A program made the position numbers and the translations under genes. From assembly GCA_017504945.1 (NCBI GenBank), contig JAFVQJ010000015.1, positions 40,842 through 104,841 of the forward strand: a DNA stretch of 64,000 nt, in the 5' to 3' direction. Under the pieces are notes generated by a model, which did no database searches, had not been told where the DNA came from, and was given only the letters and a program-made list of their open reading frames with translations. Positions within the stretch are counted from its first letter, which is position 1; the number at the start of each line of letters is the position of its first letter. The DNA comes from Clostridia bacterium (GTDB taxonomy: Bacteria; Bacillota; Clostridia; Oscillospirales; RGIG5299). Below are positions 15,860-34,738 of the stretch, one piece after another.

Positions 15860-18331
15860 ATGAAAAAAACGGTTGCAGTTGTATTGGCTCTTATCCTCAT
15901 TGCCGTTACTGCGTCTGCGGTCTTTACGGGCTGTTCCAATGGGAAAGTTGGATTCAAGGGAAGTCTTACCGTTGCGCTTGACTCAAACGGTAAATACACC
16001 TCGGTAAAGTCCGGCGGCAAGGAGCTAATAACCCAAAGCGGAGCGGGCGGCTTCTTTATCTATAATTTTGAAGACAGAAGCTATTATGAAATGACGGAGG
16101 TCTCCGTTTCCAAAAAGGGAAGCAGCTACACCGTTTCGGGAAGCAACTCCGAGCTCGGAGCAACCCTTAACGCAACTCTTGAACAGAAAAACGGCGCCGT
16201 TATAGTAAAGGGCACGGTGAAGGATACCACCGGTAACGACCGCCGCTTCAGAGTAGAGCATTCACTTCCGATTGATGCAAACGGCTGGCGCTACGGCATT
16301 GATCTTAACAGCTCCGACGAGATAAAAGGAAAAAACGTATTTGCAAACCGCCACACCGTTTTAACCAAGATCTATCAGGCAAACTACCCCTTTGCTTCGA
16401 TATCGAACGACGAAACGGGTATAGCGGCAACCAACTTGTTTGATTCGCCCGTCGTTTACGATTATTGTTACGATAACGAGGCAAAGCTTTTTACCCAGTC
16501 CTTCTATATGGGACTTTCCTCACAGACCAAAAACCCCTCGGAGGGAAGCTTCTCCTTCGCGCTTTACGATTTCAAGGGCTATCACGGCTTCAGAGGCGCG
16601 GCTGACGGAATGTATAAGATCGTTCCCGAGGCGTTTGAAACAAAAGCAGAGGAGCATGGCAACTGGCTTTTCCAGCAAAACGCCTACTATAACCTCAACG
16701 GTGTAGAGGACTACCTCGGAATCTTCAACGAATCTCCCAACTATATATTCGATAATAAATACGGCGTAGCCTCGGCAAAATACGTTGCTCCCGCCGAGAT
16801 ATGGATCTCGTGGTACGACTATGACGGCCCCAACGCCGTTCCCACTGCGGCAGAGCTCAAGAGCAAGCTTGAAAAAATGCTTACGATGCCCGAGTCGGCA
16901 AAGGATATGTACGATAACGTATCTCAAAAGGATATTGCGTCGGCGATTTTCAGCAGTGGCTATTATATAAACAAGAATAACGATTACTGGAACGCGGGCT
17001 GGAACTCCTCTTACTCGAAGATAATGGCATTTATTGCAAACGGCAATCCCAATATTCCCGCCCCGAGCAACTACAGCATTCACCGTCAGATATTCAACGA
17101 CGAGGAGGCAAAAGCGGCATCGGAGGGATACAAGGTAACGGGTCTGTATATTGATAACGCCAACTACGGCTCACTTTCAAATCTCGATTACAATACCGCA
17201 AACTATAAATACAGCAGCTATCCTCTTCTTTGGGATAATTCCGGCACCCTTGCGCTTCCCTTGGGCTACTGCACTTGGGAGTTTATCGATGCCTTTACCG
17301 CAGAGGAAAGCGATAAGATATCTCTCGGAAACATCGCATTCCCCGATAACGGAAGCGCAACCGCGCTTGCTCATTTCTTTGATATCCCCGGCGGCGAGAT
17401 AGGAAACTCGTGGGGACAGACCGACGAGGAGTTTATGCTTCGTCGCGTAAACGCCTACCAAAAGCCTTGGGCACTCCTTCTTACTCAAAACTTCAACGAC
17501 GTTTTTGAAGGCGTTGTTGACAAAAACGAAGCAAACTATAAATCAAAAGAGCTTTTGATGAAACGCTCCCTTTTCTGGGGCGTTATGTGCAACGCTATGA
17601 CTTTGACCGCAGATACTGCGGCGCTTGAAAGCGTAAGACCGCTCTTTATAAAATACGGCACGGCTCAAAAGCTCGTTTCGGAAGCTGGCTGGGAACCGAT
17701 AACCCACGCCGTTCCCACCTCAAACGCAATAAGCTGTGAGAGATTCGGCGGCAACGGCAACGAGGCGGTTTGGTTTACCGTAAGAGCAAACCGCGACGGC
17801 GCCGAAAATGAGGGAATATACGTTCCGCTTCCCAATCTCGGCTTCAAAAAAGGCGATTATAACAAGCTTATTGCATTCGATGTTGTTGCAAATAAAATGC
17901 TTGACGTAGTTGTCGAAGGCGACATAATGACCGTCAAGACAGAGCTTTCCGAAACAGACGACGTTGCGGCGGTAATAATCGGCACTCCCGCGCAGATAGC
18001 GGCAGCACTCAAAGATGAAAACGCCACGGCAGCCAAACGCATAGAGGAAAAGCTTTCGGAACTTGAAAAGCTTGCCGACAAAAAGACCTCCGATCCCGCT
18101 GAGGTAATAGCTGAAATCAAGGAAATGAAAAAGGCAAATGCCGCATTCCTTAAAGCGGTAAATAAAGGCGATTTCGCAAAGGCGGCAGCCGAGCTTGAAA
18201 CGGTAACGAGCCTCTCGCAGAGCTTTATCGACCAAAAGACCTTCGGCGCGGTGGAGGGCAAGGCAATTCAAACCGAGCTTACCGCAGTTGCCGAAAGATA
18301 TATGAACAGATATAAAGCGTTATCGAAATAA
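15860..18331 (+). CDS. Large hypothetical lipoprotein
   Basis: Signal peptide with a lipobox (VFTGC). The protein is 823 aa with an alanine/lysine-rich helical C-terminal tail. No catalytic motif was recognised. Confidence 0.55.
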   Translation: MKKTVAVVLALILIAVTASAVFTGCSNGKVGFKGSLTVALDSNGKYTSVKSGGKELITQSGAGGFFIYNFEDRSYYEMTEVSVSKKGSSYTVSGSNSELGATLNATLEQKNGAVIVKGTVKDTTGNDRRFRVEHSLPIDANGWRYGIDLNSSDEIKGKNVFANRHTVLTKIYQANYPFASISNDETGIAATNLFDSPVVYDYCYDNEAKLFTQSFYMGLSSQTKNPSEGSFSFALYDFKGYHGFRGAADGMYKIVPEAFETKAEEHGNWLFQQNAYYNLNGVEDYLGIFNESPNYIFDNKYGVASAKYVAPAEIWISWYDYDGPNAVPTAAELKSKLEKMLTMPESAKDMYDNVSQKDIASAIFSSGYYINKNNDYWNAGWNSSYSKIMAFIANGNPNIPAPSNYSIHRQIFNDEEAKAASEGYKVTGLYIDNANYGSLSNLDYNTANYKYSSYPLLWDNSGTLALPLGYCTWEFIDAFTAEESDKISLGNIAFPDNGSATALAHFFDIPGGEIGNSWGQTDEEFMLRRVNAYQKPWALLLTQNFNDVFEGVVDKNEANYKSKELLMKRSLFWGVMCNAMTLTADTAALESVRPLFIKYGTAQKLVSEAGWEPITHAVPTSNAISCERFGGNGNEAVWFTVRANRDGAENEGIYVPLPNLGFKKGDYNKLIAFDVVANKMLDVVVEGDIMTVKTELSETDDVAAVIIGTPAQIAAALKDENATAAKRIEEKLSELEKLADKKTSDPAEVIAEIKEMKKANAAFLKAVNKGDFAKAAAELETVTSLSQSFIDQKTFGAVEGKAIQTELTAVAERYMNRYKALSK

Positions 18332-18373: not shown

Positions 18374-20044
18374 ATGAAAAAGATAATTGCAACAGTCTTG
18401 GCACTTGTCCTTTGTCTTGGGCTTCTTTCCGCCTGCACGGGCGGCGGAAGTCAGAGGATACCCTACGATTACGGCGATGGCTTTAAGCCCTATTCACCCG
18501 AAATAACGATAAGCGTTGCCAATCCCATGGCAGAAGACCTTGTGGCTTATCTCACCGAAAAGGGCGACAATCAGGAAAACAACGCTTGGAACAGGCTTTA
18601 CCGCGAAAAGTTGGGCATTAAGATAAGATACGATTCTGCTTTCGGTATGCTCGGCGGCTACACCGAGAAGCTCTCGGCTGCAAGCATGGCAGATAACTTC
18701 CCTGATCTCGCGTATCTCGGAAGCGGCGAATTTGCCTACACCCTCATAAAGAATATGTATGAAAGAGATCAGCTTGCCGACCTCACCGACGCTATTGAAA
18801 AGCTTGCGTCCGACGATCTCAAAAACGCCTTCGAGGTTGCAGGCGATGAGATCTTCTATCCTGCCACCTTCAACGGCAAGAAATTTGCGATTCCGCAGAT
18901 AATCGGCGCGGAAAACGAGGCGTATACCTATTATTTCCTCAGAAAAGACTGGCTTGATAACTTGAATCTCGCGATTCCCTCCACCTTTGAGGAGCTTCTC
19001 TCGGTCTGTGAGGCGTTTGCAAATCAGGATCCCGACGGAAACGGTGAGGACGATACCTACGGTCTTTCCTTCGGCGGCGACTTCAGAGAGACGGGCTCAC
19101 TCTTCTTTGCGGCATACGGAGCATATCCCGGTCAGTGGATAAAGAGTGAGGACGGAAGCAAGCTCGTTTACGGCTCTTACACCGAAAACACCAAGAGAGC
19201 TATTGCACAGCTTCACGAGATGTATAAGAGCGGCGCTCTTAATCCTGCCTTCAACGAGACCGGCTTCGACGGACTCTACACTGAGTTCAACACCGGTAAA
19301 GCAGGCGTTTTCATGGGTAAGGTATATTATCCCTTCCTCCTTGAAAACCTCGTTATGAGAAACCCCGATGCAGAGATAGTTGCCGTTAAGGCAATGGCGG
19401 CAGACGGCGGTGAGGTAAAGATAATGACTCCCACCAACGCGGCGGCGTATTTCGTAATGAATGCGAAATGCAACTATCCCGAGGCAATGGTAAAGATGTT
19501 TAACCTCTACCTTGAGACCAGCTTGAATCCCGAGTCGGAGGAACAGTATTACGAGCTTATAGCCGACAAGGATACCGGTAAGAATATCTGGACTATGTCA
19601 CCCGTCAAGACCGCTATTCCCGGTGAAAACGCCAGAAAGGCAAACATAGTTGTCGAGGCACTTCTCGAAGGCACAAAGGAAAATCTTCTTCCTCATCAGG
19701 TAGCTCTTTACGATCAGGTAGTTCAGTTTGAGGAGAGAGGCACCAAATCCCTCTACGGCGACTGGATGCTCTGGAAGGAAGGCGGCACCGAGTCCACCAT
19801 TCAGGAGTATTTCGATAACGAATGGTTTATGCCCATCAACTTCAACGGCGCAAAGACCGAAAGTATGCAGCTTTACGGCGACGATCTTTACAGCGGCGAG
19901 GTCGGCGGCTTTATCCTTATGATAATGGGTGAAAATCCCATCGACAGCTTCGACACAATGTACGACGCCTGGAAGGATATCGGCGGCGCCGACGTTGAAA
20001 GAGAGATCAACGAGTGGTACAGCACCGTCAGAGCGCAGAACTGA
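18374..20044 (+). CDS. ABC transporter extracellular solute-binding lipoprotein (large family-1 type)
   Basis: Lipobox LLSAC, ~556 aa, and sequence character typical of the large sugar/oligosaccharide-binding proteins. No permease or ATPase genes are adjacent. Confidence 0.7.
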   Translation: MKKIIATVLALVLCLGLLSACTGGGSQRIPYDYGDGFKPYSPEITISVANPMAEDLVAYLTEKGDNQENNAWNRLYREKLGIKIRYDSAFGMLGGYTEKLSAASMADNFPDLAYLGSGEFAYTLIKNMYERDQLADLTDAIEKLASDDLKNAFEVAGDEIFYPATFNGKKFAIPQIIGAENEAYTYYFLRKDWLDNLNLAIPSTFEELLSVCEAFANQDPDGNGEDDTYGLSFGGDFRETGSLFFAAYGAYPGQWIKSEDGSKLVYGSYTENTKRAIAQLHEMYKSGALNPAFNETGFDGLYTEFNTGKAGVFMGKVYYPFLLENLVMRNPDAEIVAVKAMAADGGEVKIMTPTNAAAYFVMNAKCNYPEAMVKMFNLYLETSLNPESEEQYYELIADKDTGKNIWTMSPVKTAIPGENARKANIVVEALLEGTKENLLPHQVALYDQVVQFEERGTKSLYGDWMLWKEGGTESTIQEYFDNEWFMPINFNGAKTESMQLYGDDLYSGEVGGFILMIMGENPIDSFDTMYDAWKDIGGADVEREINEWYSTVRAQN

Positions 20045-20142: not shown

Positions 20143-20979
20143 ATGAAAAGGGTACTGACAGAAACGGAATTGGAGAAATTTGAAGGATATCTGCTCAAAG
20201 AGGAAAAAAGCCTGCGCACAGTGGAAAAATATCTGCGCGACGTCGGGCGGTTTATCACCTTTGCAAACGGCAGGGAAATAGAAAAAAGCACGGTAATTGC
20301 CTATAAAACCATGCTCGAGAAAAGCTATGCCGTTTCGAGTGCAAACACAATGCTTGCCGCCCTGAACGGCTTTTTTCGCTTTATGGAGTGGCATGATCTC
20401 ACGGTAAAGCAGTTTAAATTTCAAAACAGAAGCTTTTGCCCGCAGGACAAGGAGCTTTCGAGAGAAGAATATGCGCGTCTCGTAACAACGGCGCTAAAAC
20501 AGGGGAACGAGCGTCTTTCACTCATTCTGCAGACCGTGTGCAGCACGGGCATACGCATAAGCGAGCTTGAATACATAACCGCCGAAACGGTAAGGCGCGG
20601 CGAGACGGTTGTAAGCTGCAAGGGTAAAAAACGCGTTATCCTGCTCGTGCCCGATCTTCAGAAAAAGCTTGAAAGATACGTTCGCAAAAACGGGATAGAA
20701 GGAAAGCTTTTCGTAACGAATAGCGGAAAGCCCGTTTGCCGCACGAACGTCTGGCGAGAGATGAAGCGTCTTGCCGCCGACGCCGACGTGCCCGAGAATA
20801 AGGTCTTTCCGCACAATTTAAGGCATCTCTTTGCCCGAACCTTCTATTCAATGGATAAGGATATAGTCAAGCTTGCCGACATTTTGGGGCATACCAACAT
20901 AAATACCACGCGAATATACACCGTTACAACTGCCGACGAATACAAAAAGAAGATGGAGGAGATGATGCTGATAATATAA
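20143..20979 (+). CDS. Tyrosine site-specific recombinase (XerC/D- or RecV-like), candidate invertase for the adjacent switch
   Basis: An N-terminal SAM-like domain (LRTVEKYLRDVGRFITF) is followed by a catalytic domain with the STGIRISEL (Arg), HNLRHLFA (His-x-x-Arg) and GHTNINTTRIYT (His...Tyr) motifs. ATG 20143 follows a GGAGG RBS, and an extended -10 (TGtTATAAT) lies at 20107-20115. Confidence 0.85.
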   Translation: MKRVLTETELEKFEGYLLKEEKSLRTVEKYLRDVGRFITFANGREIEKSTVIAYKTMLEKSYAVSSANTMLAALNGFFRFMEWHDLTVKQFKFQNRSFCPQDKELSREEYARLVTTALKQGNERLSLILQTVCSTGIRISELEYITAETVRRGETVVSCKGKKRVILLVPDLQKKLERYVRKNGIEGKLFVTNSGKPVCRTNVWREMKRLAADADVPENKVFPHNLRHLFARTFYSMDKDIVKLADILGHTNINTTRIYTVTTADEYKKKMEEMMLII

Positions 20980-21010
20980 AAACTGCCCACAGTCTTAAGA
21001 CTGCGGGCAG
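20976..21010 (-). terminator. Terminator of the leftward variant-A operon
   Basis: Hairpin CTGCCCACAGTCTT / AAGACTGCGGGCAG (20983-21010). Read on the minus strand it is followed by TTTT. Confidence 0.5.
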
Positions 21011-21032
21011 TAAATCAAAGATCCTTGGTCGA

Positions 21033-21164
21033 TTAATCCCAGCCGTTTTCGCCGGTAATGTAGTTTCCTTCGTTTTCACCCTCGGTAGTGGGGATAGAAA
21101 CGGTGATAACGTCTTCGATAGCAAAAAGCTCAAATTCGATTTCAGGTGTAGTATATTTTTTCAT
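21033..21164 (-). CDS. Conserved 43-aa acidic small protein (copy A), downstream of variant A
   Basis: My translation gives MKKYTTPEIEFELFAIEDVITVSIPTTEGENEGNYITGENGWD. It is preceded by AAAGGAGAT. It is below the track's length cut-off. A near-identical copy lies at 26654-26785. Confidence 0.5.
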   Translation of the reverse strand: MKKYTTPEIEFELFAIEDVITVSIPTTEGENEGNYITGENGWD

Positions 21165-21583
21165 TTTATTTATCTCCTTTCACCGAATTATGCGTTCATA
21201 GCATCGTTGATGCTTATAGCACGGAGACCACCGTAGGTGATGGTGCCGTCAGCATACTCAACGTAGCTTACTGCAAGGAAGATTCTGCTGAGCTGATCCT
21301 CGGGAATACCGATAAGAACTGCGGTAAAGGAGATCGAGTCGTCGGTCTTCTCGTAGTAGTTCTTTGCAACGATATCAAGGTAAGAGGTGCCGTCGATCTT
21401 GCCGTCTTGAGTATGACCGAGATAACCGCCGGTTACCTTGTCTGCGGGCATGATGATGGTGCCCATCTTTACGATAGAATCGTTGTTGTTAACGCTGTTA
21501 AGAGCAACGGTGGTCTTGAAACGAAGACCTGCTGCTACCTTCTCGGAAGGTGCTCTCCACTGTACAACGGGAGTGGTAGCCTT
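21033..21583. repeat. Outer inverted repeat, arm A (3' constant region of variant A plus the small ORF)
   Basis: This is the reverse complement of 26235-26785. I counted about 10 mismatches in the ~400 nt of the large gene that I aligned by eye. The mirror-image spurious ORFs in the track (21407..22129 + and 26097..26465 -) share the same peptide, which confirms the repeat. Confidence 0.85.
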
Positions 21584-23707
21584 GTTCTCGGTTTCGTTGT
21601 AATAAGCATCTGCACCTTCGTATTTACCGGCGGTTATACCGTTGATTGCTTTGAATTCTGCGGTAGCACCGCTGGTGCCGTAGCCGGTCTGACCGACTAT
21701 AACGTAAGCCTGATTGTTCTCATCAAGAACGTTGGTTACATTGAATTCGTAATCAACGTATGCGCCGGTGGGCTCTTCGGTCTCGGGATCGATCTCTTCA
21801 ATCTGAAGTGCTGCGCCGTTAAGATAGATCTTAACGTATTTATTACCGTCAACCTCGTAAACGTCGCCTACCGAGAAGGTGTTATCAACGTCGTTGGACC
21901 AAGCGTTAGTGAAGGCTATGGCGCCTACAACACCGGATCCGTAGATAACGTTATCGCCGCCGACGTGGATAGCAAGAGCAGTTGCGGGGTTGCAATCGGG
22001 GAAATAGGTATTGACGGACATCTGGAGGCTGTACGTAGTGGGCTTGGTTGCGCTCAAGATGAAATCGGTGTGAGCGTTAGGAGAGGAAAAGGTATTAGCG
22101 GTTTTGTTTATAACTATCTCAAGTCTTGATGCGAAGAGCTTCTCGTTATAAACAACGCCTGCCTGACCCCAGTTTCCGGTATTACTGTTGAGTTTGATTA
22201 TACCGTTGGGCTTATAAGAAACGATGCCGCCGGGAGTGGTTGCGTCTGCCATCCAAGGAGCGAGAACCGTCCAGTTAGAATCTGCGGGATCAAACTCAGC
22301 GGGAACCTCTAACCAAAGACCATAATTATTGGGAACAAAACCGCTGATATCAGAAATGATGTAGGTTCCGGTGGTATTGCCGCCATAGGTAGAAGCACCG
22401 AAGCCGAGAACCGCAATACCGTCTACAGAAAAGATAGATGCGGCATTTGCGAAGGTGTAGATAAGAGTGCCGTTAGCATAAAGATTAACGTCTGCACCGT
22501 CAATGCTGAATATGAAAGAGTTTACGTCGTTTACTTTGATGGCACTTACTACCTTATCTGCAAGAGATACACCGGAGTTAACACATGCGCCGTTAACATA
22601 AGTGTAGAGAAGTATCTGGTTGGCCAGATTGTTAACAAGTCTGAACTCAATGCTGTCACCGTTGGTAGTCTGAACGCAAGAACCGGCAGCGGTTGAAGGA
22701 ACAGTTGTGTTAGCTGCGGTAGAAAGCATTACCGAGAAGTTCTGGAAGCAGGTGCCTGCATCCTTGCCCGTATCATCGGTAAGAGCTTGATTAGGAACAA
22801 AGATATCAAGAGAAATGTTATTGCCCGAATCGAATGCAACACCCTTTAAAGAACTGATAGCTGCGCCCGACCATGCACCGGCGCCTATGGAAAGGGTACC
22901 GTCTGCGTTGATTGCTGCTGTTGCATTGTTTGCAGCAGAAGTATTCCAAGTGGGCTCAACGTAAGTATAAGCCTCGTAATCTGCAACAGAGTCGTCGTTA
23001 GAAACTATTTTGAAGTTTCTGAAGGAGGGCATATTGTTCCAGTCGCCGCAGTCGCCGTTGGAGCCAAGAACAACGTATTTGCCGGTTGCATTTTCGGGAG
23101 TATAGGCGTTGCAAACAAGAACGTCGTTTACCCACATAGAAACAACACCGTTTGCTACAACGACCTTAACGGTATTCCAATCGCCGGATTCGATACCGAT
23201 GATAGAATAGGGAGATGCTGCACAAGCAACTGCTTTTGCAGAAGTGTCAAAAAGTTCTACTACATTGTAGGTGCCCCAAGCAGCGTAGTTATCGGGGGTG
23301 CCTGCTGCCGTACCCTCGTAGTTGGCGAGTTTTACAGACATAGCGCCTGTCCAGTTTTTGTCTGCGCCGTCGGGGTATACACCCATAACGCCTACTACGG
23401 GAACACCGTTAGTAGTACTTGCGCTCTGGGTTGCGGGGACGTATGCTTCAACAGTAATAGTGTAGTTATTGTTGTAAGCAGAGGCATCATAAAGTGCGCC
23501 GAGGTTTGCAAAAGGAACCTCAGGATTGCCCCAACCCATAGAGAGAGAACCGTCAGCGTTTACTTTGAAGTTAGATGCGCTTGCGCCGCCGGTAGCGGTG
23601 TGCTCCCAACCGTCAGCAACTGCTGCCGATGCCATGGGGATTGCTGCAAATGCGAGAGGCAATATCATGATTATTGCGACCGCAATGCAAAGGAGTTTTC
23701 TTTTCAT
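21188..23707 (-). CDS. Secreted multi-domain beta-sandwich (LamG/concanavalin-like lectin-type) protein, variant A
   Basis: 839 aa. The signal peptide MKRKLLCIAVAIIMILPLAFAAIPMASAA is identical to that of variant B. Repeated modules of the type W..V.V.V.NG.V..W.ND look like LamG/DUF1080-type modules, but this is from memory and weak. The C-terminal ~130 aa are nearly identical to variant B. Confidence 0.8.
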   Translation of the reverse strand: MKRKLLCIAVAIIMILPLAFAAIPMASAAVADGWEHTATGGASASNFKVNADGSLSMGWGNPEVPFANLGALYDASAYNNNYTITVEAYVPATQSASTTNGVPVVGVMGVYPDGADKNWTGAMSVKLANYEGTAAGTPDNYAAWGTYNVVELFDTSAKAVACAASPYSIIGIESGDWNTVKVVVANGVVSMWVNDVLVCNAYTPENATGKYVVLGSNGDCGDWNNMPSFRNFKIVSNDDSVADYEAYTYVEPTWNTSAANNATAAINADGTLSIGAGAWSGAAISSLKGVAFDSGNNISLDIFVPNQALTDDTGKDAGTCFQNFSVMLSTAANTTVPSTAAGSCVQTTNGDSIEFRLVNNLANQILLYTYVNGACVNSGVSLADKVVSAIKVNDVNSFIFSIDGADVNLYANGTLIYTFANAASIFSVDGIAVLGFGASTYGGNTTGTYIISDISGFVPNNYGLWLEVPAEFDPADSNWTVLAPWMADATTPGGIVSYKPNGIIKLNSNTGNWGQAGVVYNEKLFASRLEIVINKTANTFSSPNAHTDFILSATKPTTYSLQMSVNTYFPDCNPATALAIHVGGDNVIYGSGVVGAIAFTNAWSNDVDNTFSVGDVYEVDGNKYVKIYLNGAALQIEEIDPETEEPTGAYVDYEFNVTNVLDENNQAYVIVGQTGYGTSGATAEFKAINGITAGKYEGADAYYNETENKATTPVVQWRAPSEKVAAGLRFKTTVALNSVNNNDSIVKMGTIIMPADKVTGGYLGHTQDGKIDGTSYLDIVAKNYYEKTDDSISFTAVLIGIPEDQLSRIFLAVSYVEYADGTITYGGLRAISINDAMNA

Positions 23708-23791
23708 GGTTTTTTTCCTTTCTTAATAATAAAATTTTTTTAATTTAGTTTACTTAAACGGTCGACAAATACAACATAATGAACATTATGT
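23621..23791. repeat. Inner inverted repeat, left arm (signal-peptide codons + 5' UTR + recombination core)
   Basis: 171 bp that is the reverse complement of 24154-24323 with a single 1-nt indel (A4 vs A3 at ~23731). Identity stops exactly at the end of the palindromic core (23791). Confidence 0.9.
23774..23791 (+). other. Candidate recombination core site L (ACATAATG-AA-CATTATGT)
   Basis: This near-palindrome sits at the inner end of the left IR arm. The context acaACATAATGAACATTATGTatc has the central TGAACA in the same orientation as site M and opposite to site R. Confidence 0.6.
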
Positions 23792-23806
23792 ATCAAAAAA
23801 ACCGTG

Positions 23807-23836
23807 AAAAAAAACAAAAACCACCCTCTCGGGTGG
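23807..23836 (-). terminator. Unidirectional (leftward-acting) terminator inside the invertible segment
   Basis: Hairpin CCACCC-tctc-GGGTGG (23821-23836). On the minus strand it is followed by TTTTTGTTTT. On the plus strand no T-run follows, so it should stop only transcription heading toward variant A. Confidence 0.55.
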
Positions 23837-23846
23837 CGAAAAGAAA

Positions 23847-23864
23847 ACATAATGAACATTATGT
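23847..23864 (+). other. Candidate recombination core site M (third, internal copy)
   Basis: aaaACATAATGAACATTATGTtgc has the same 18-bp core and the same orientation as site L. It lies 73 bp to the right of L, on the other side of the terminator. Confidence 0.55.
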
Positions 23865-23867
23865 TGC

Positions 23868-23896
23868 TTGAAAAAATACCGTTTTCGCCCTATTAT
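23868..23896 (+). promoter_or_regulatory. Promoter-like element, rightward (TTGAAA-N17-TATTAT)
   Basis: The hexamers and 17-nt spacing were read directly. The region is AT-rich, so the false-positive risk is high. Confidence 0.3.
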
Positions 23897-23907
23897 ATAT
23901 AAAAAAC

Positions 23908-23936
23908 ATTATAATATAGGTGCCTCCTCGCGACAA
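23908..23936 (-). promoter_or_regulatory. Promoter-like element, leftward (TTGTCG-N17-TATAAT on the minus strand)
   Basis: In plus-strand coordinates the -35 is at 23931-23936 and the -10 at 23908-23913. Transcripts from here would hit the 23807-23836 terminator before reaching variant A. Confidence 0.3.
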
Positions 23937-24087
23937 ATTTATAAATCCTCCCTTGAAATCCTCGAAAGCCGCACCACAGCTTGCTTTGCAGACCTTTTTT
24001 GCCGTTAAAATTTAAAAACTTTTGTCGATTTATACAAAAAATACACCTAAATTGACAATATTTTCTATAAAAAATAAAAATAAAGGC

Positions 24088-24116
24088 TTGCATTTTCCCT
24101 CTTGTTATGGTAAAAT
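24088..24116 (+). promoter_or_regulatory. Best sigma-70-type promoter in the switch, currently facing variant B (TTGCAT-N17-TGgTAAAAT)
   Basis: The -35 TTGCAT is at 24088-24093, followed by a 17-nt spacer and an extended -10 with TGG at 24108-24110 and TAAAAT at 24111-24116. It lies inside the invertible segment, 35 bp from site R. Confidence 0.5.
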
Positions 24117-24153
24117 AAAGTGAAATTTAGTTTATTTAATATGAATTCATACA

Positions 24154-24171
24154 ACATAATGTTCATTATGT
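24154..24171 (-). other. Candidate recombination core site R (ACATAATG-TT-CATTATGT, inverted relative to L and M)
   Basis: With flanks it forms a perfect 24-bp palindrome except for the central dinucleotide: ACAACATAATG-TT-CATTATGTTGT (24151-24174). It sits at the inner end of the right IR arm. Confidence 0.6.
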
Positions 24172-24323
24172 TGTATTTGTCGACCGTTTAAGTAAACTAA
24201 ATTAAAAAAATTTATTATTAAGAAAGGAAAAAAACCATGAAAAGAAAACTCCTTTGCATTGCGGTCGCAATAATCATGATATTGCCTCTCGCATTTGCAG
24301 CAATCCCCATGGCATCGGCAGCA
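24154..24323. repeat. Inner inverted repeat, right arm
   Basis: It is the partner of 23621-23791 and covers the core site, the 5' UTR, the RBS (AAGAAAGGAAAAAAACC ATG) and the first 29 codons of variant B. Confidence 0.9.
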
Positions 24324-26630
24324 TCGGTTAAGTATATTTCTTCTGATTTTTCTTATCCCGCCGATATAAATGGAATTGCAATCAACTCAGACGGCTCTAT
24401 GGGCGTTAGCTATGGTACACATGCTGAAAACGGTGTAAACTCTTACGTTGACTTTGTTGGCACCGCAAATCTTGGCAATAGCTACACCGTAGAGGTTGAT
24501 GTTCGTCTTGCAGAACAGATGCAGTATGCAGCTGCTATCGGCTTGGGTGCAAGTGATTCTTGGGTAGGTGCAGGCTTGGTTGTTAAGCTCGGTAATAACG
24601 GTAATAATTATCTTGAACTTTACGACAACGCTCTTGCTCCCTTGACTCCCGCTGTTGCTTCTGCAGCAGACTTCAACATGCGCACTTACAGCGAAGGCTT
24701 TAACACCGTAAAGTTCGTTGTAGAAAACAACGTTGTTGACCTTTATATCAACGACGTTCTTGTTCTCGCAGATTATGCGATGACTCCCATCGGCGGCTAT
24801 CTCGCTCTCGGTGTAAACGGAGATGCCGGAAACAAATACGTTCCTGTAACCTACAAAAATCTTAAGGTTACCAACGGCGAAGGAACCAAAAGCTATCTTG
24901 ATCAGCCTTTGAATTGGAACTTACAGGATCTCCAGGGAATAGGCGGAGCCTCCGATATGGCTGCTGCAGACCGTATTAATCCCAGCACCTATGTTTTGAA
25001 TAAAACAAACGGCTCTTTCGGAATTTATTCAAATGCATGGTCCGGATCGATCATTTCCTCTAAAAAGGCATTGGATATCAGCTCTGCCATTACGACAGAG
25101 GTGGTTATCGGCAATATGCCTTACGAAGCAACTGCCGGTCATGGAGCAAATCCCGCACAGTGCCACTCTATCGTTTTATCTGCATCGTCTCCCTCTATCA
25201 TTGCTAATGCATTTGCAGAATCGACCGTATACAGCGGTATAGAGGTTAAATTCATTAAAGATGTAGACGGAAATATCGACGTCTATTTTATGGAAAACGG
25301 AGCATTGAAGCTTCTGTCAGAAAACTTGTTCGTTCCCGGTGACGTAGTAACCTTTGCCTTCAAAAATAACGGCACCGATATTGCGGTATATGCCGCCAAG
25401 GGCAACGAAGCAGAAGCATTGCTTTATACATATGCAAATGCAGCTGGCAATTTCGCAGGATATGCATTTTTGGCTTACACCGCACAGACGTATGGCGGCG
25501 CAGTAACAAATGAAATGACCGTAAATAAAGTAAATGGCGTTGCAGCACTGGATTACGCAGGCGGTATTGTACCTGTAGAAGTCAAAGACGGTTGGAGCGA
25601 TGCTTTTGAAGCAGCATTTAACGCAAGTCAGAACGTACAGTGCGGTCAGGGTACTGTTGTTTTCAGTGCCAACGGTGAAATGAATCTCATTTCCGGTGAT
25701 GGTTGGTTTGGACATGCGGGAACCGCATTGGTTGAGAAAGTAGCTCTTTCCGGTTTGTCACTTGTCGTTGACATTTCCGGATTTACAATTAATGAACACA
25801 ATTTCGTCATATCTCTTACCAAGGCTCCCATTAGTGCAGCAGAATCTGCTGGAAGTTTCTGGTCTATTCCCGCATACGATAAGACCGCAACTACCAGCGA
25901 TCTCGGCTTGTTCTTCGATAAAAACGGAGGAATCGTAACCTGGTATGGACGTAATGACTGCGCACAGGGTGCCTTTGAAATCGGAGAGGACGCTAAATTT
26001 ACCGTAAAGTTTGGCGAGCCTTATGCTGACGGCGAAAAGACACTTGTTAAGCTGTATGTAAACGGCGCAGAAATCAGATCGTACGATATAACCGATTTAT
26101 TGGACGAGGACGGTAAGGTATACCTTTCTACCGGAGTTACCGGATATGGAAATACCGGTTGTTCTGCAAAAGTTATCAGCGTAAACGGTGTTACTGCAGG
26201 TCTTTATGACGGTGCAGCTACCTACACCGATCACAAGGCTACCACTCCCGTTGTACAGTGGAGAGCACCTTCCGAGAAAGTAGCAGCAGGTCTTCGTTTC
26301 AAGACCACCGTTGCTCTTAACGGCGTTAACAACAACGATTCTATCGTAAAGATGGGCACCATCATCATGCCCGCAGACAAGGTAACCGGCGGTTATCTCG
26401 GTCATACTCAAGACGGCAAGATCGACGGCACCTCTTACCTTGATATCGTTGCAAAGAACTACCACGAGAAGACCGACGACTCGATCTCCTTCACCGCAGT
26501 TCTTATCGGTATTCCCGAGGATCAGCTTGATAGAATCTTCCTTGCAGTAAGCTACGTTGAGTATGCTGACGGCACCATCACCTACGGTGGTCTCCGTGCT
26601 GTAAGCATCAACGATGCCATGAACGCATAA
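24237..26630 (+). CDS. Secreted multi-domain beta-sandwich (LamG/concanavalin-like lectin-type) protein, variant B
   Basis: 797 aa. The first 29 aa are identical to variant A. The central ~640 aa are only distantly similar to variant A, although the architecture is the same. The last ~130 aa (TTPVVQWRAPSEKVAAGLRFKTTVALN...GGLRAxSINDAMNA) are nearly identical. Confidence 0.8.
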   Translation: MKRKLLCIAVAIIMILPLAFAAIPMASAASVKYISSDFSYPADINGIAINSDGSMGVSYGTHAENGVNSYVDFVGTANLGNSYTVEVDVRLAEQMQYAAAIGLGASDSWVGAGLVVKLGNNGNNYLELYDNALAPLTPAVASAADFNMRTYSEGFNTVKFVVENNVVDLYINDVLVLADYAMTPIGGYLALGVNGDAGNKYVPVTYKNLKVTNGEGTKSYLDQPLNWNLQDLQGIGGASDMAAADRINPSTYVLNKTNGSFGIYSNAWSGSIISSKKALDISSAITTEVVIGNMPYEATAGHGANPAQCHSIVLSASSPSIIANAFAESTVYSGIEVKFIKDVDGNIDVYFMENGALKLLSENLFVPGDVVTFAFKNNGTDIAVYAAKGNEAEALLYTYANAAGNFAGYAFLAYTAQTYGGAVTNEMTVNKVNGVAALDYAGGIVPVEVKDGWSDAFEAAFNASQNVQCGQGTVVFSANGEMNLISGDGWFGHAGTALVEKVALSGLSLVVDISGFTINEHNFVISLTKAPISAAESAGSFWSIPAYDKTATTSDLGLFFDKNGGIVTWYGRNDCAQGAFEIGEDAKFTVKFGEPYADGEKTLVKLYVNGAEIRSYDITDLLDEDGKVYLSTGVTGYGNTGCSAKVISVNGVTAGLYDGAATYTDHKATTPVVQWRAPSEKVAAGLRFKTTVALNGVNNNDSIVKMGTIIMPADKVTGGYLGHTQDGKIDGTSYLDIVAKNYHEKTDDSISFTAVLIGIPEDQLDRIFLAVSYVEYADGTITYGGLRAVSINDAMNA

Positions 26631-26785
26631 TTCGGTGAAAGGAGATAAATAAAATGAAAAAATATACTACACCTGAAATCGAATTTGAGCTTTTTGCTAT
26701 CGAGGACGTTATCACCGTTTCCCTTCCTTCTGCTGAGGGTGAAAACGAGGGCGGATACATCACCGGCGAAAACGGTTGGGACTAA
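26235..26785. repeat. Outer inverted repeat, arm B
   Basis: This is the partner of 21033-21583 (see that entry). Confidence 0.85.
26654..26785 (+). CDS. Conserved 43-aa acidic small protein (copy B), downstream of variant B
   Basis: MKKYTTPEIEFELFAIEDVITVSLPSAEGENEGGYITGENGWD, preceded by an AAAGGAGAT RBS. It differs from copy A at 4 of 43 residues. Confidence 0.5.
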   Translation: MKKYTTPEIEFELFAIEDVITVSLPSAEGENEGGYITGENGWD

Positions 26786-26810
26786 TCCACCGATTTAACT
26801 CAATAATTAA

Positions 26811-26840
26811 AAACCGCAGGCATATTGCCTGCGGTTTTTT
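26811..26840 (+). terminator. Terminator of the rightward variant-B operon
   Basis: Stem AACCGCAGGC / GCCTGCGGTT followed by TTTTT. Confidence 0.7.
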
Positions 26841-34642: not shown

Positions 34643-34738
34643 CCCCGCCTCAAACGAGGCGGGGAAAAATTTTTTTAAAATATTGTCAGCTTTTTGCCGT
34701 CTTATGCGTTTTATAGGTAGAGGATTAAAAATCCCGAT
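34643..34738 (+). repeat. Direct repeat copy 1 (terminator hairpin + 62-nt conserved element)
   Basis: CCCCGCC..GGCGGGG hairpin, T-run, then AAAATATTGTCAGCTTTTTGCCGTCTTATGCGTTTTATAGGTAGAGGATTAAAAATCCCGAT. The 62-nt core is identical at 38224-38286. Confidence 0.85.

Follow-up and report, generated by a model that had tools for sequence, protein, structure and literature searches.

Two large genes that stand head to head in the genome of an uncultured Clostridia bacterium (assembly GCA_017504945.1, contig JAFVQJ010000015.1, positions 40,842 to 104,841) are nearly identical at both ends and strongly diverged in between: what keeps the ends alike, what changes the middle, and why are the two genes paired at all? 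The whole stretch of 64,000 nucleotides (nt) is called the window here, and all coordinates refer to it. We believe, with a probability of about three in four, that this constant-variable-constant gene pair forms, with its two cassettes, the output stage of a switch that works by site-specific DNA inversion. An earlier annotation made from the letters alone, the sequence-only reading, had described the constant ends and the variable cores and was largely right; what it did not identify was the putative promoter switch between the genes, which would explain their pairing.

Gene A (21188-23707, minus strand) encodes a protein of 839 amino acids (aa), and its paralogue gene B (24237-26630, plus strand) one of 797 aa, named [quoted passage not shown] at NCBI. 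Each is followed by an open reading frame (ORF) of 43 aa, small ORF A at 21033-21164 (minus strand) and small ORF B at 26654-26785 (plus strand), and each operon closes with an intrinsic terminator predicted by a terminator scan: at 20982-21011 on the minus strand (a 13-pair stem and a T-run) and at 26809-26839 on the plus strand. The outer ends form an inverted repeat, found by a repeat search and by blastn, with arms at 21027-21592 and 26226-26791: 566 nt, 94.9% identical, with 29 mismatches and no gaps. Each arm spans the last 405 nt of the large gene, a 23-nt spacer holding the ribosome-binding site, and the small ORF. The mismatches are unevenly spread: 12 fall in the 405-nt coding part of the large genes (four synonymous and six non-synonymous codons), none in the spacer, 16 in the 132 nt of the small ORF (eight synonymous and four non-synonymous codons), and one in the 6 nt past it. 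The borders are abrupt, identity rising at the inner edge from about 34/60 to 59/60 in blocks of 60 columns and dropping right past the stop codon of the small ORF. The cores (21617-23620 in gene A, 24324-26210 in gene B) are collinear, with only 28% amino-acid identity and 19% gaps. Near-identical 3′ ends had been placed by the sequence-only reading at 21033-21583 and 26235-26785, both of which fall within the arms, with about 10 mismatches in some 400 coding nt, close to the 12 found; its view that the cores are strongly diverged, and that identity along the genes has sharp edges instead of declining uniformly, is borne out by the same comparisons.

The shared 5′ ends, which had likewise been noticed, form a second, inner inverted repeat with arms at 23621-23791 on the gene A side and 24154-24323 on the gene B side: 171 nt, 99.4% identical, one indel. 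It covers both 5′ untranslated regions (UTRs) and the first 29 codons of each gene, which encode the signal peptide. At its inner ends lie two copies, s1 and s3, of an 18-bp near-palindromic site, ACATAATG-NN-CATTATGT, of which a pattern search found three copies in the window against zero expected by chance, even at two mismatches: s1 (ACATAATGAACATTATGT) at 23774-23791, s2 at 23847-23864, and s3 (ACATAATGTTCATTATGT) at 24154-24171, all as read on the plus strand. The central dinucleotide is AA in s1 and s2 and TT in s3, so that s3 is inverted relative to the other two. Within the 171-nt repeat a site stands 66-83 nt upstream of the ATG of each gene, while neither gene and neither 3′ arm contains one, two mismatches allowed. 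The site is conserved across species while the adjoining sequence drifts, and sites of this family flank inverting segments in other metagenomes.

The intergenic region between the genes measures 529 bp, with 27% GC, and a search of the region against Rfam returned no matches. As inverted copies at the inner edges of the repeat, s1 and s3 bound a candidate invertible segment of 362 bp (23792-24153) that contains s2, a predicted intrinsic terminator and a predicted promoter. The terminator (23820-23837, minus strand) lies between the direct repeats s1 and s2 and would block transcription toward gene A; the promoter (24088-24116, plus strand), read from the sequence as TTGCAT-17 nt-TGgTAAAAT, points toward gene B. 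An alignment with four related loci shows both hexamers to be invariant, across species, and the spacer variable. The site-terminator-site layout upstream of the gene predicted to be silent recurs at two further loci, L004 and L005.

In the switch that we propose, two paralogous head-to-head operons, each with a gene for a secreted protein followed by that for a 43-aa protein, would be served by a single outward promoter at one end of the 362-bp segment. The adjacent tyrosine recombinase would flip the segment between s1 and s3, which lie in the 5′ UTR of each gene, and the promoter would read through the site and the shared leader into one gene: gene B in the state of the window, where gene A is predicted to be silent. 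The terminator at the other end, bracketed by s2, would move with the segment and so would always stand ahead of the other gene, shielding it. The 5′ constant end would then consist of recombination site, shared leader and signal peptide, and the 3′ constant end, made up of a shared C-terminal domain and the partner ORF, would be kept near-identical by gene conversion between the arms. The outer arms would also offer homology for swaps of cores between strains and for an occasional inversion of the whole unit; since they contain no site, they are not the target of the recombinase.

The presumed invertase is encoded at 20143-20979 (plus strand), convergent with the gene A operon. It is a tyrosine recombinase of 278 aa with a Pfam Phage_integrase match (2.6e-23) and a SAM-like N-terminal domain; it resembles XerA/XerD, under the equivalog cut-offs, and its catalytic R, K, HxxR, H, and Y are intact in an alignment to the XerC-like 4a8e. 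What such an enzyme does is best seen in its relatives. Scanning metagenome contigs for the 18-mer gave at least 120 matches, mostly lone chance occurrences, and only the loci with paired sites are informative. Several contigs among the matches listed carry two inverted copies of the site 220-280 bp apart, and in L105, L065 and L068 the recombinase gene ends 1-18 nt from one site of the pair; the L105 recombinase is 50% identical to that of the window. L055/L105 and L057, which come from different samples, have flanks that are 96-99% the same and a 283-nt segment (99.3%) in opposite orientation. Because both orientations are found, this recombinase family inverts segments bounded by exactly these sites, and we infer that the window recombinase acts on the window sites in this organism. 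The canonical relatives govern one downstream surface-protein gene. Site pairs of such single-gene invertons were seen in L055, L057, L105 (8021-8300), L112, L065 (1367-1666) and L068 (9826-10064), and the L105 inverton lies upstream of a gene whose product, a surface protein of 989 aa, has a membrane anchor at its C-terminus.

The family of the large proteins is rare, with eight clusters among 5.8 billion proteins, all from metagenome-assembled genomes of uncultured Clostridia/Eubacteriales. Among close relatives, both orientations of the segment relative to the chromosome occur, as do locked derivatives of both kinds. L004, from another species (about 82% identity), is in the state of the window, with site-terminator-site before the recombinase-side gene and the promoter pointing away; L005, from a third species, has site-terminator-site before the gene on the side of polA, the gene for DNA polymerase I, which is the opposite state. 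L003 belongs to the species of the window (polA flank 98.3% identical), and its promoter segment is flipped relative to polA, reading into a different recombinase-side gene, that of P0003. Gene B is missing from L003, and the segment is fused to the final 21 nt of small ORF B via an 11-nt microhomology, CCGTTTTCGCC. In the window this 11-mer stands inside the invertible segment (23880-23890) and, reverse-complemented, at the 3′ end of small ORF B (26768-26778). The arrangement of L003 is the one that would be expected of a deletion in the “A-ON” orientation, with this 11-mer as its junction. The three loci L007, L008 and L009, from the same species as L004 (96%), are without the recombinase, the recombinase-side operon and s1-terminator-s2 and have kept promoter, site and gene; they look locked ON.

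Two further observations concern these loci. On the recombinase side, identity between the flank of L003 and the window is only about 90-92%, against the 98.3% of the polA side, and this inequality suggests that lineages have recombined around the locus. Assembly ERZ27256862 divides the locus between two contigs, L001 from window position 24028 and L002 from 23974, with a gap of 53 nt within the invertible segment. The contig ends match no site or repeat border; low coverage and mixed orientations are both possible causes.

What, then, keeps the 3′ ends alike? Selection on the protein is insufficient, because the non-coding spacer is identical and synonymous changes are few, four in the 135 codons of the large-gene part of the arms, beside cores of 28% identity. 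L141, an independent assembly of essentially the same strain from another sample, differs from the window over 19,724 nt by eight substitutions and one indel. All nine differences lie inside the inverted repeats, and each gives the base of the partner arm: at six positions of arm A (21287-21355) L141 has the B allele, at 26601 and 26618 in arm B it has the A allele, and the indel at 24210 renders the inner repeat perfect. The repeats make up 7.5% of the 19,724 nt, and the chance that all nine would fall there is about 7e-11 by location alone. Furthermore, three single-copy strains (L003, L146 and L147) are reshuffled mosaics of the 29 sites that distinguish arm A from arm B, and along the 3′ end of L009 two types of sequence take turns.

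The middle of the genes, for its part, is exchanged between constant ends. L007 and L009 have flanks that are 97% identical through the signal peptide, and different cores; gene A of the window and the gene of P0003 in L003 occupy the same position and encode different proteins; and in L144 a B-like core (92%) with a B-type small ORF is joined to the recombinase-side flank. The diagnostic sites of L144 go from B to A in the last 30 nt of the arm, right before that flank, which fits a crossover in the outer arm, whether via inversion of the whole interior or via a cassette swap. The sequence-only reading had offered concerted evolution and cassette replacement as alternatives, and both are supported: the one by the nine partner-matching differences and the allele mosaics, the other by the survey of related genomes, which turned up other cores on the constant ends in L007 and L009, L003, and L144. 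Its further view that the mosaic is the hallmark of a variation locus agrees with the adjoining tyrosine recombinase, the three sites and the putative invertible promoter segment, and the inversion that it foresaw between the outer arms is plausible, the turn from B to A inside the arm of L144 speaking for it. A candidate for the reciprocal junction, L138, has an A-type small ORF beside the polA-side terminator; it is a contig of about 1x coverage with an unrelated high-GC tail, and it was not relied on.

Several points count against the inversion switch. Gene A separates the recombinase from the sites, whereas the canonical relatives abut a site. The promoter and the terminator are predictions, and their function is deduced from sequence; a promoter scan also gave promoter-like matches on the opposite strand within the segment, so the picture of one promoter may be incomplete. 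All assemblies of the window strain (the window/L140, L141, and L001 with L002) are in a single orientation, and it is from the relatives that we infer switching within one population. The partner-matching differences of L141 could stem from bubble popping or path switching in a de Bruijn graph at a repeat, which in a two-copy genome could mimic conversion. Finally, s2 is a third site to which a toggle between s1 and s3 assigns no role. A role can be imagined, and we regard it as doubtful: recombination of s2 with s3 (or of s1 with s2 after a flip) would turn the promoter into the terminator and so give two “both OFF” states, making a four-configuration, three-phenotype switch from one recombinase that would drive a new surface-display module of Clostridia, composed of a C-terminal immunoglobulin (Ig)-like domain and a partner of 36-43 aa.

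Other mechanisms might produce the same locus. Inversion could depend on RecA and proceed by general homologous recombination between the two copies of the 171-nt 5′ repeat, as at the sap locus of Campylobacter fetus, with the recombinase irrelevant or an Xer-like housekeeping enzyme. The repeat, at 171 nt and 99.4-100% identity, does far exceed the core site of a tyrosine recombinase, the recombinase gene does not abut the sites here, and homologous exchange is clearly at work in the locus; yet the repeat stops exactly at the 18-bp near-palindromic site, that site recurs outside the long repeat as s2 and is conserved across species amid drift, and the same site with a homologous recombinase makes invertons elsewhere without any long repeats, all of which renders this route improbable. 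We rate somewhat lower again the idea of static paralogues, born of an inverted duplication, with ends kept by purifying selection alone and neither switching nor exchange. It would accommodate the one orientation in all assemblies of the window strain and a C-terminal domain that is a conserved module in many proteins, but it leaves unexplained why synonymous sites and the non-coding spacer are nearly identical and why the borders of the repeat are sharp, the repeat-confined differences that match the partner arm, the opposite promoter orientation in relatives, and the different cores in identical flanks.

Two explanations remain. The 566-nt outer arms, being long and inverted, could be programmed inversion sites of a shufflon that, as its regulatory event, trades 3′ ends or flips the whole 5.8-kb unit, and L144, with its B-like core on the recombinase-side flank and its A/B switch within the arm, could be read in that sense. 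A flip of the whole unit would, however, keep the relationship of each gene to its promoter, both arms encode the same domain, so that a trade would yield no new protein, and the arms are devoid of the site motif even at two mismatches; we consider a shufflon very unlikely. As for the palindrome being created by assembly, in a chimeric or fold-back contig, a break does occur within the intergenic region in one assembly from the same sample series, but the independent assemblies from other samples (L140 and L141) span the whole locus identically and related species keep the architecture with diverged sequence. Because the structure is the same in L141 and present in modified form in related species, an artefact is ruled out for practical purposes.

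What would be switched? The gene A product consists of a Sec signal peptide, three concanavalin-A-like (ConA-like) lectin-type domains and the constant C-terminal domain. It scores 33.2 bits against PF06439 (3-keto-disaccharide hydrolase / DUF1080, ConA-like), over the cut-off of 26.8, and gene B 18.7 bits, under it. A model of the gene A product with a predicted local distance difference test score (pLDDT) of 65 matches, in a fold search, tandem ConA-like, LamG and galectin domains, BT3469, and neurexin LNS. In both proteins the N-terminal Sec-type signal peptide is the sole hydrophobic segment, and a motif check found neither a lipobox nor an LPxTG motif in either, as the sequence-only reading had stated. 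The signal peptide, of 29 aa, is near-invariant in all eight family members, and the cores are modular, particular modules being common to, or missing from, different members. The products of genes A and B are probably variable glycan-binding surface or secreted proteins.

The C-terminal ~130 aa had been suspected to be a module that may serve in anchoring or in binding a partner; the module itself is real and widespread. An exhaustive profile search (E ≤ 1e-3), used in place of a word-index search that with the domain alone had returned a single fragment, found it in 914 representative proteins, where it mostly makes up the C-terminus of surface-type proteins that also carry BspA-type leucine-rich repeats, CHAP/SH3, Big_2 or GDSL domains. 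Neither Pfam nor NCBIfam has a family for the domain or for the small ORF. Its model (pLDDT 87) predicts an Ig/FN3-like sandwich; a fold search with this model gave only generic FN3/Ig-like matches (E ≥ 1e-3, template-modelling score ≤ 0.55), uninformative on function, and the PDB, searched by sequence using the family profile, yielded one marginal match only, 4jqt. The domain is autonomous. In a paralogue at L014 (8784-10697) it follows the same signal peptide directly and is itself followed by a pectate-lyase-type beta-helix-like region, and because of this N-terminal placement we take the constant domain for a movable module.

Small ORF and large gene stay together as well: the ORF is kept with its ribosome-binding site and the 23-nt spacing in every related locus, distant ones included, and it is probably a real protein. 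In the distant relatives L006 and L013 the units of gene and small ORF are tandem and direct; each unit has a promoter of its own, and sites are absent. One contig ends in the sequence with which the other starts (L013, 6221-8598, and L006, 1-3338, both Tb.RUG.148), giving an apparent direct tandem array whose units are split by a GC-rich spacer, some 200 nt long, that is itself repeated. A helical tail of about 35-45 aa, with ...(G)DNDxxWPWN at the extreme C-terminus, was observed after the constant domain in many of its homologues (P0028, P0039, P0043, P0050, P0051, P0056, P0065, and P0070), and it could serve as a signal for sorting or anchoring. The small ORF, with its acidic ...GWD/GWN end, is only loosely like this tail. 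That the 43-aa ORF is a split-off ...DNDxxWPWN tail is unsupported, a profile-profile comparison (hhalign) giving a probability of 0.5% and E = 0.13.

How does the locus compare with known switches? Its closest known analogue is the Vpma/Xer1 system of Mycoplasma, although it is a member of neither the Vpma/Vsp nor the sap family. In the Vpma/Vsp systems with Xer1 (Mbr), inversions place a unique promoter before alternative genes, every cassette gene has a site in its 5′ UTR (-1 to -72), conservation is high in this UTR and in the signal peptide while the bodies vary, and a tyrosine recombinase gene lies beside the M. agalactiae Vpma or M. bovis Vsp locus (PMC2268961, PMC11868660). The likeness is in the unique promoter (a predicted one here), the sites in conserved 5′ UTRs, the conserved signal peptide and the adjoining Xer-like recombinase. 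The differences are that here, in an uncultured Clostridia/Eubacteriales bacterium, two cassettes, placed head to head, flank a short and putatively invertible promoter segment, a third site brackets the terminator, and a constant 3′ module of C-terminal domain and 43-aa ORF is added; the proteins are Sec-secreted and lectin-like instead of lipoproteins. Where the Vpma/Vsp definition calls for at least three lipoprotein cassettes, the window has only two, and these encode ConA-like multidomain proteins without a lipobox.

The inversion at sapA of Campylobacter fetus, reportedly worked out by Dworkin and Blaser in the 1990s, involves a single promoter on an invertible segment between opposed homologues, whose expression is mutually exclusive. 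The sap genes encode S-layer proteins and have conserved 5′ regions of about 600 bp; their inversion is largely RecA-dependent, with no dedicated neighbouring recombinase. Opposed homologues around a sole promoter, here a predicted one, and conserved 5′ ends are common to both systems. The 5′ repeat of 171 nt and the dedicated recombinase with short sites tell somewhat against RecA-dependent exchange across long 5′ regions here; the inverting segments, moreover, are larger in sap, and the products there are S-layer proteins, unlike here.

Simple ON/OFF invertons of tyrosine recombinases are represented by fimS with FimB/FimE in E. coli and by the RecV switches of Clostridioides difficile; invertons of the gut microbiome were reportedly treated by Jiang et al. 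in 2019. The window locus resembles them in its short inverted repeats, its putative promoter segment of a few hundred bp and the tyrosine recombinase nearby, and L055/L057, L065, L068 and L105 are exactly of this kind, with the same site sequence. Whereas a simple inverton turns one gene ON or OFF with two sites, here a second paralogous operon lies in the OFF direction, which would make an A/B toggle, and the sites number three. Hin of Salmonella is a serine recombinase, and alternation there works through the repressor FljA; there promoter inversion alternates two antigenically distinct versions of one surface protein, as it would here, but in the window one promoter would be pointed at either gene. 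Inversion within coding sequence, as in shufflons or Gin-Cin-Min, does not fit: no site was found in the genes or 3′ arms, and both genes are whole, from start codon to stop codon. The locus is best described as an inverton of a Clostridia recombinase/site family in which a second paralogous operon has come to occupy the OFF direction. The mechanism would be phase or antigenic variation of a kind already known, though in a new setting, and unusual for its three sites, its mobile terminator and its constant 3′ module with a micro-ORF.

Outside the locus, a gene for an 823-aa lipoprotein-like protein (15860-18331) lies upstream of one for a putative substrate-binding lipoprotein of 556 aa (18374-20044); the former is single in the window and a tandem duplicate (822 and 822/823 aa) in L003 and L004. 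Further direct repeats lie downstream, close to a gene for a protein with Ricin-B and Big_2 domains: one pair at 37475-38213 and 39245-39991 (81% over about 750 nt), another at 34657-34738 and 38207-38286 (95% over 83 nt).

Loci of this build carry a warning, for they break or homogenise assemblies. They also offer a marker: the site ACATAATG-NN-CATTATGT, together with the recombinase family, marks invertons in other gut Firmicutes and helps to annotate phase-variable genes in metagenomes. For uncultured Clostridia of the ruminant gut, the locus would bring site-specific inversion, gene conversion and homologous cassette exchange to bear on one and the same place in the genome. The C-terminal domain, unannotated in spite of its presence in more than 900 representative surface proteins, and its micro-ORF partner may, either of them, be a new anchoring or display device.

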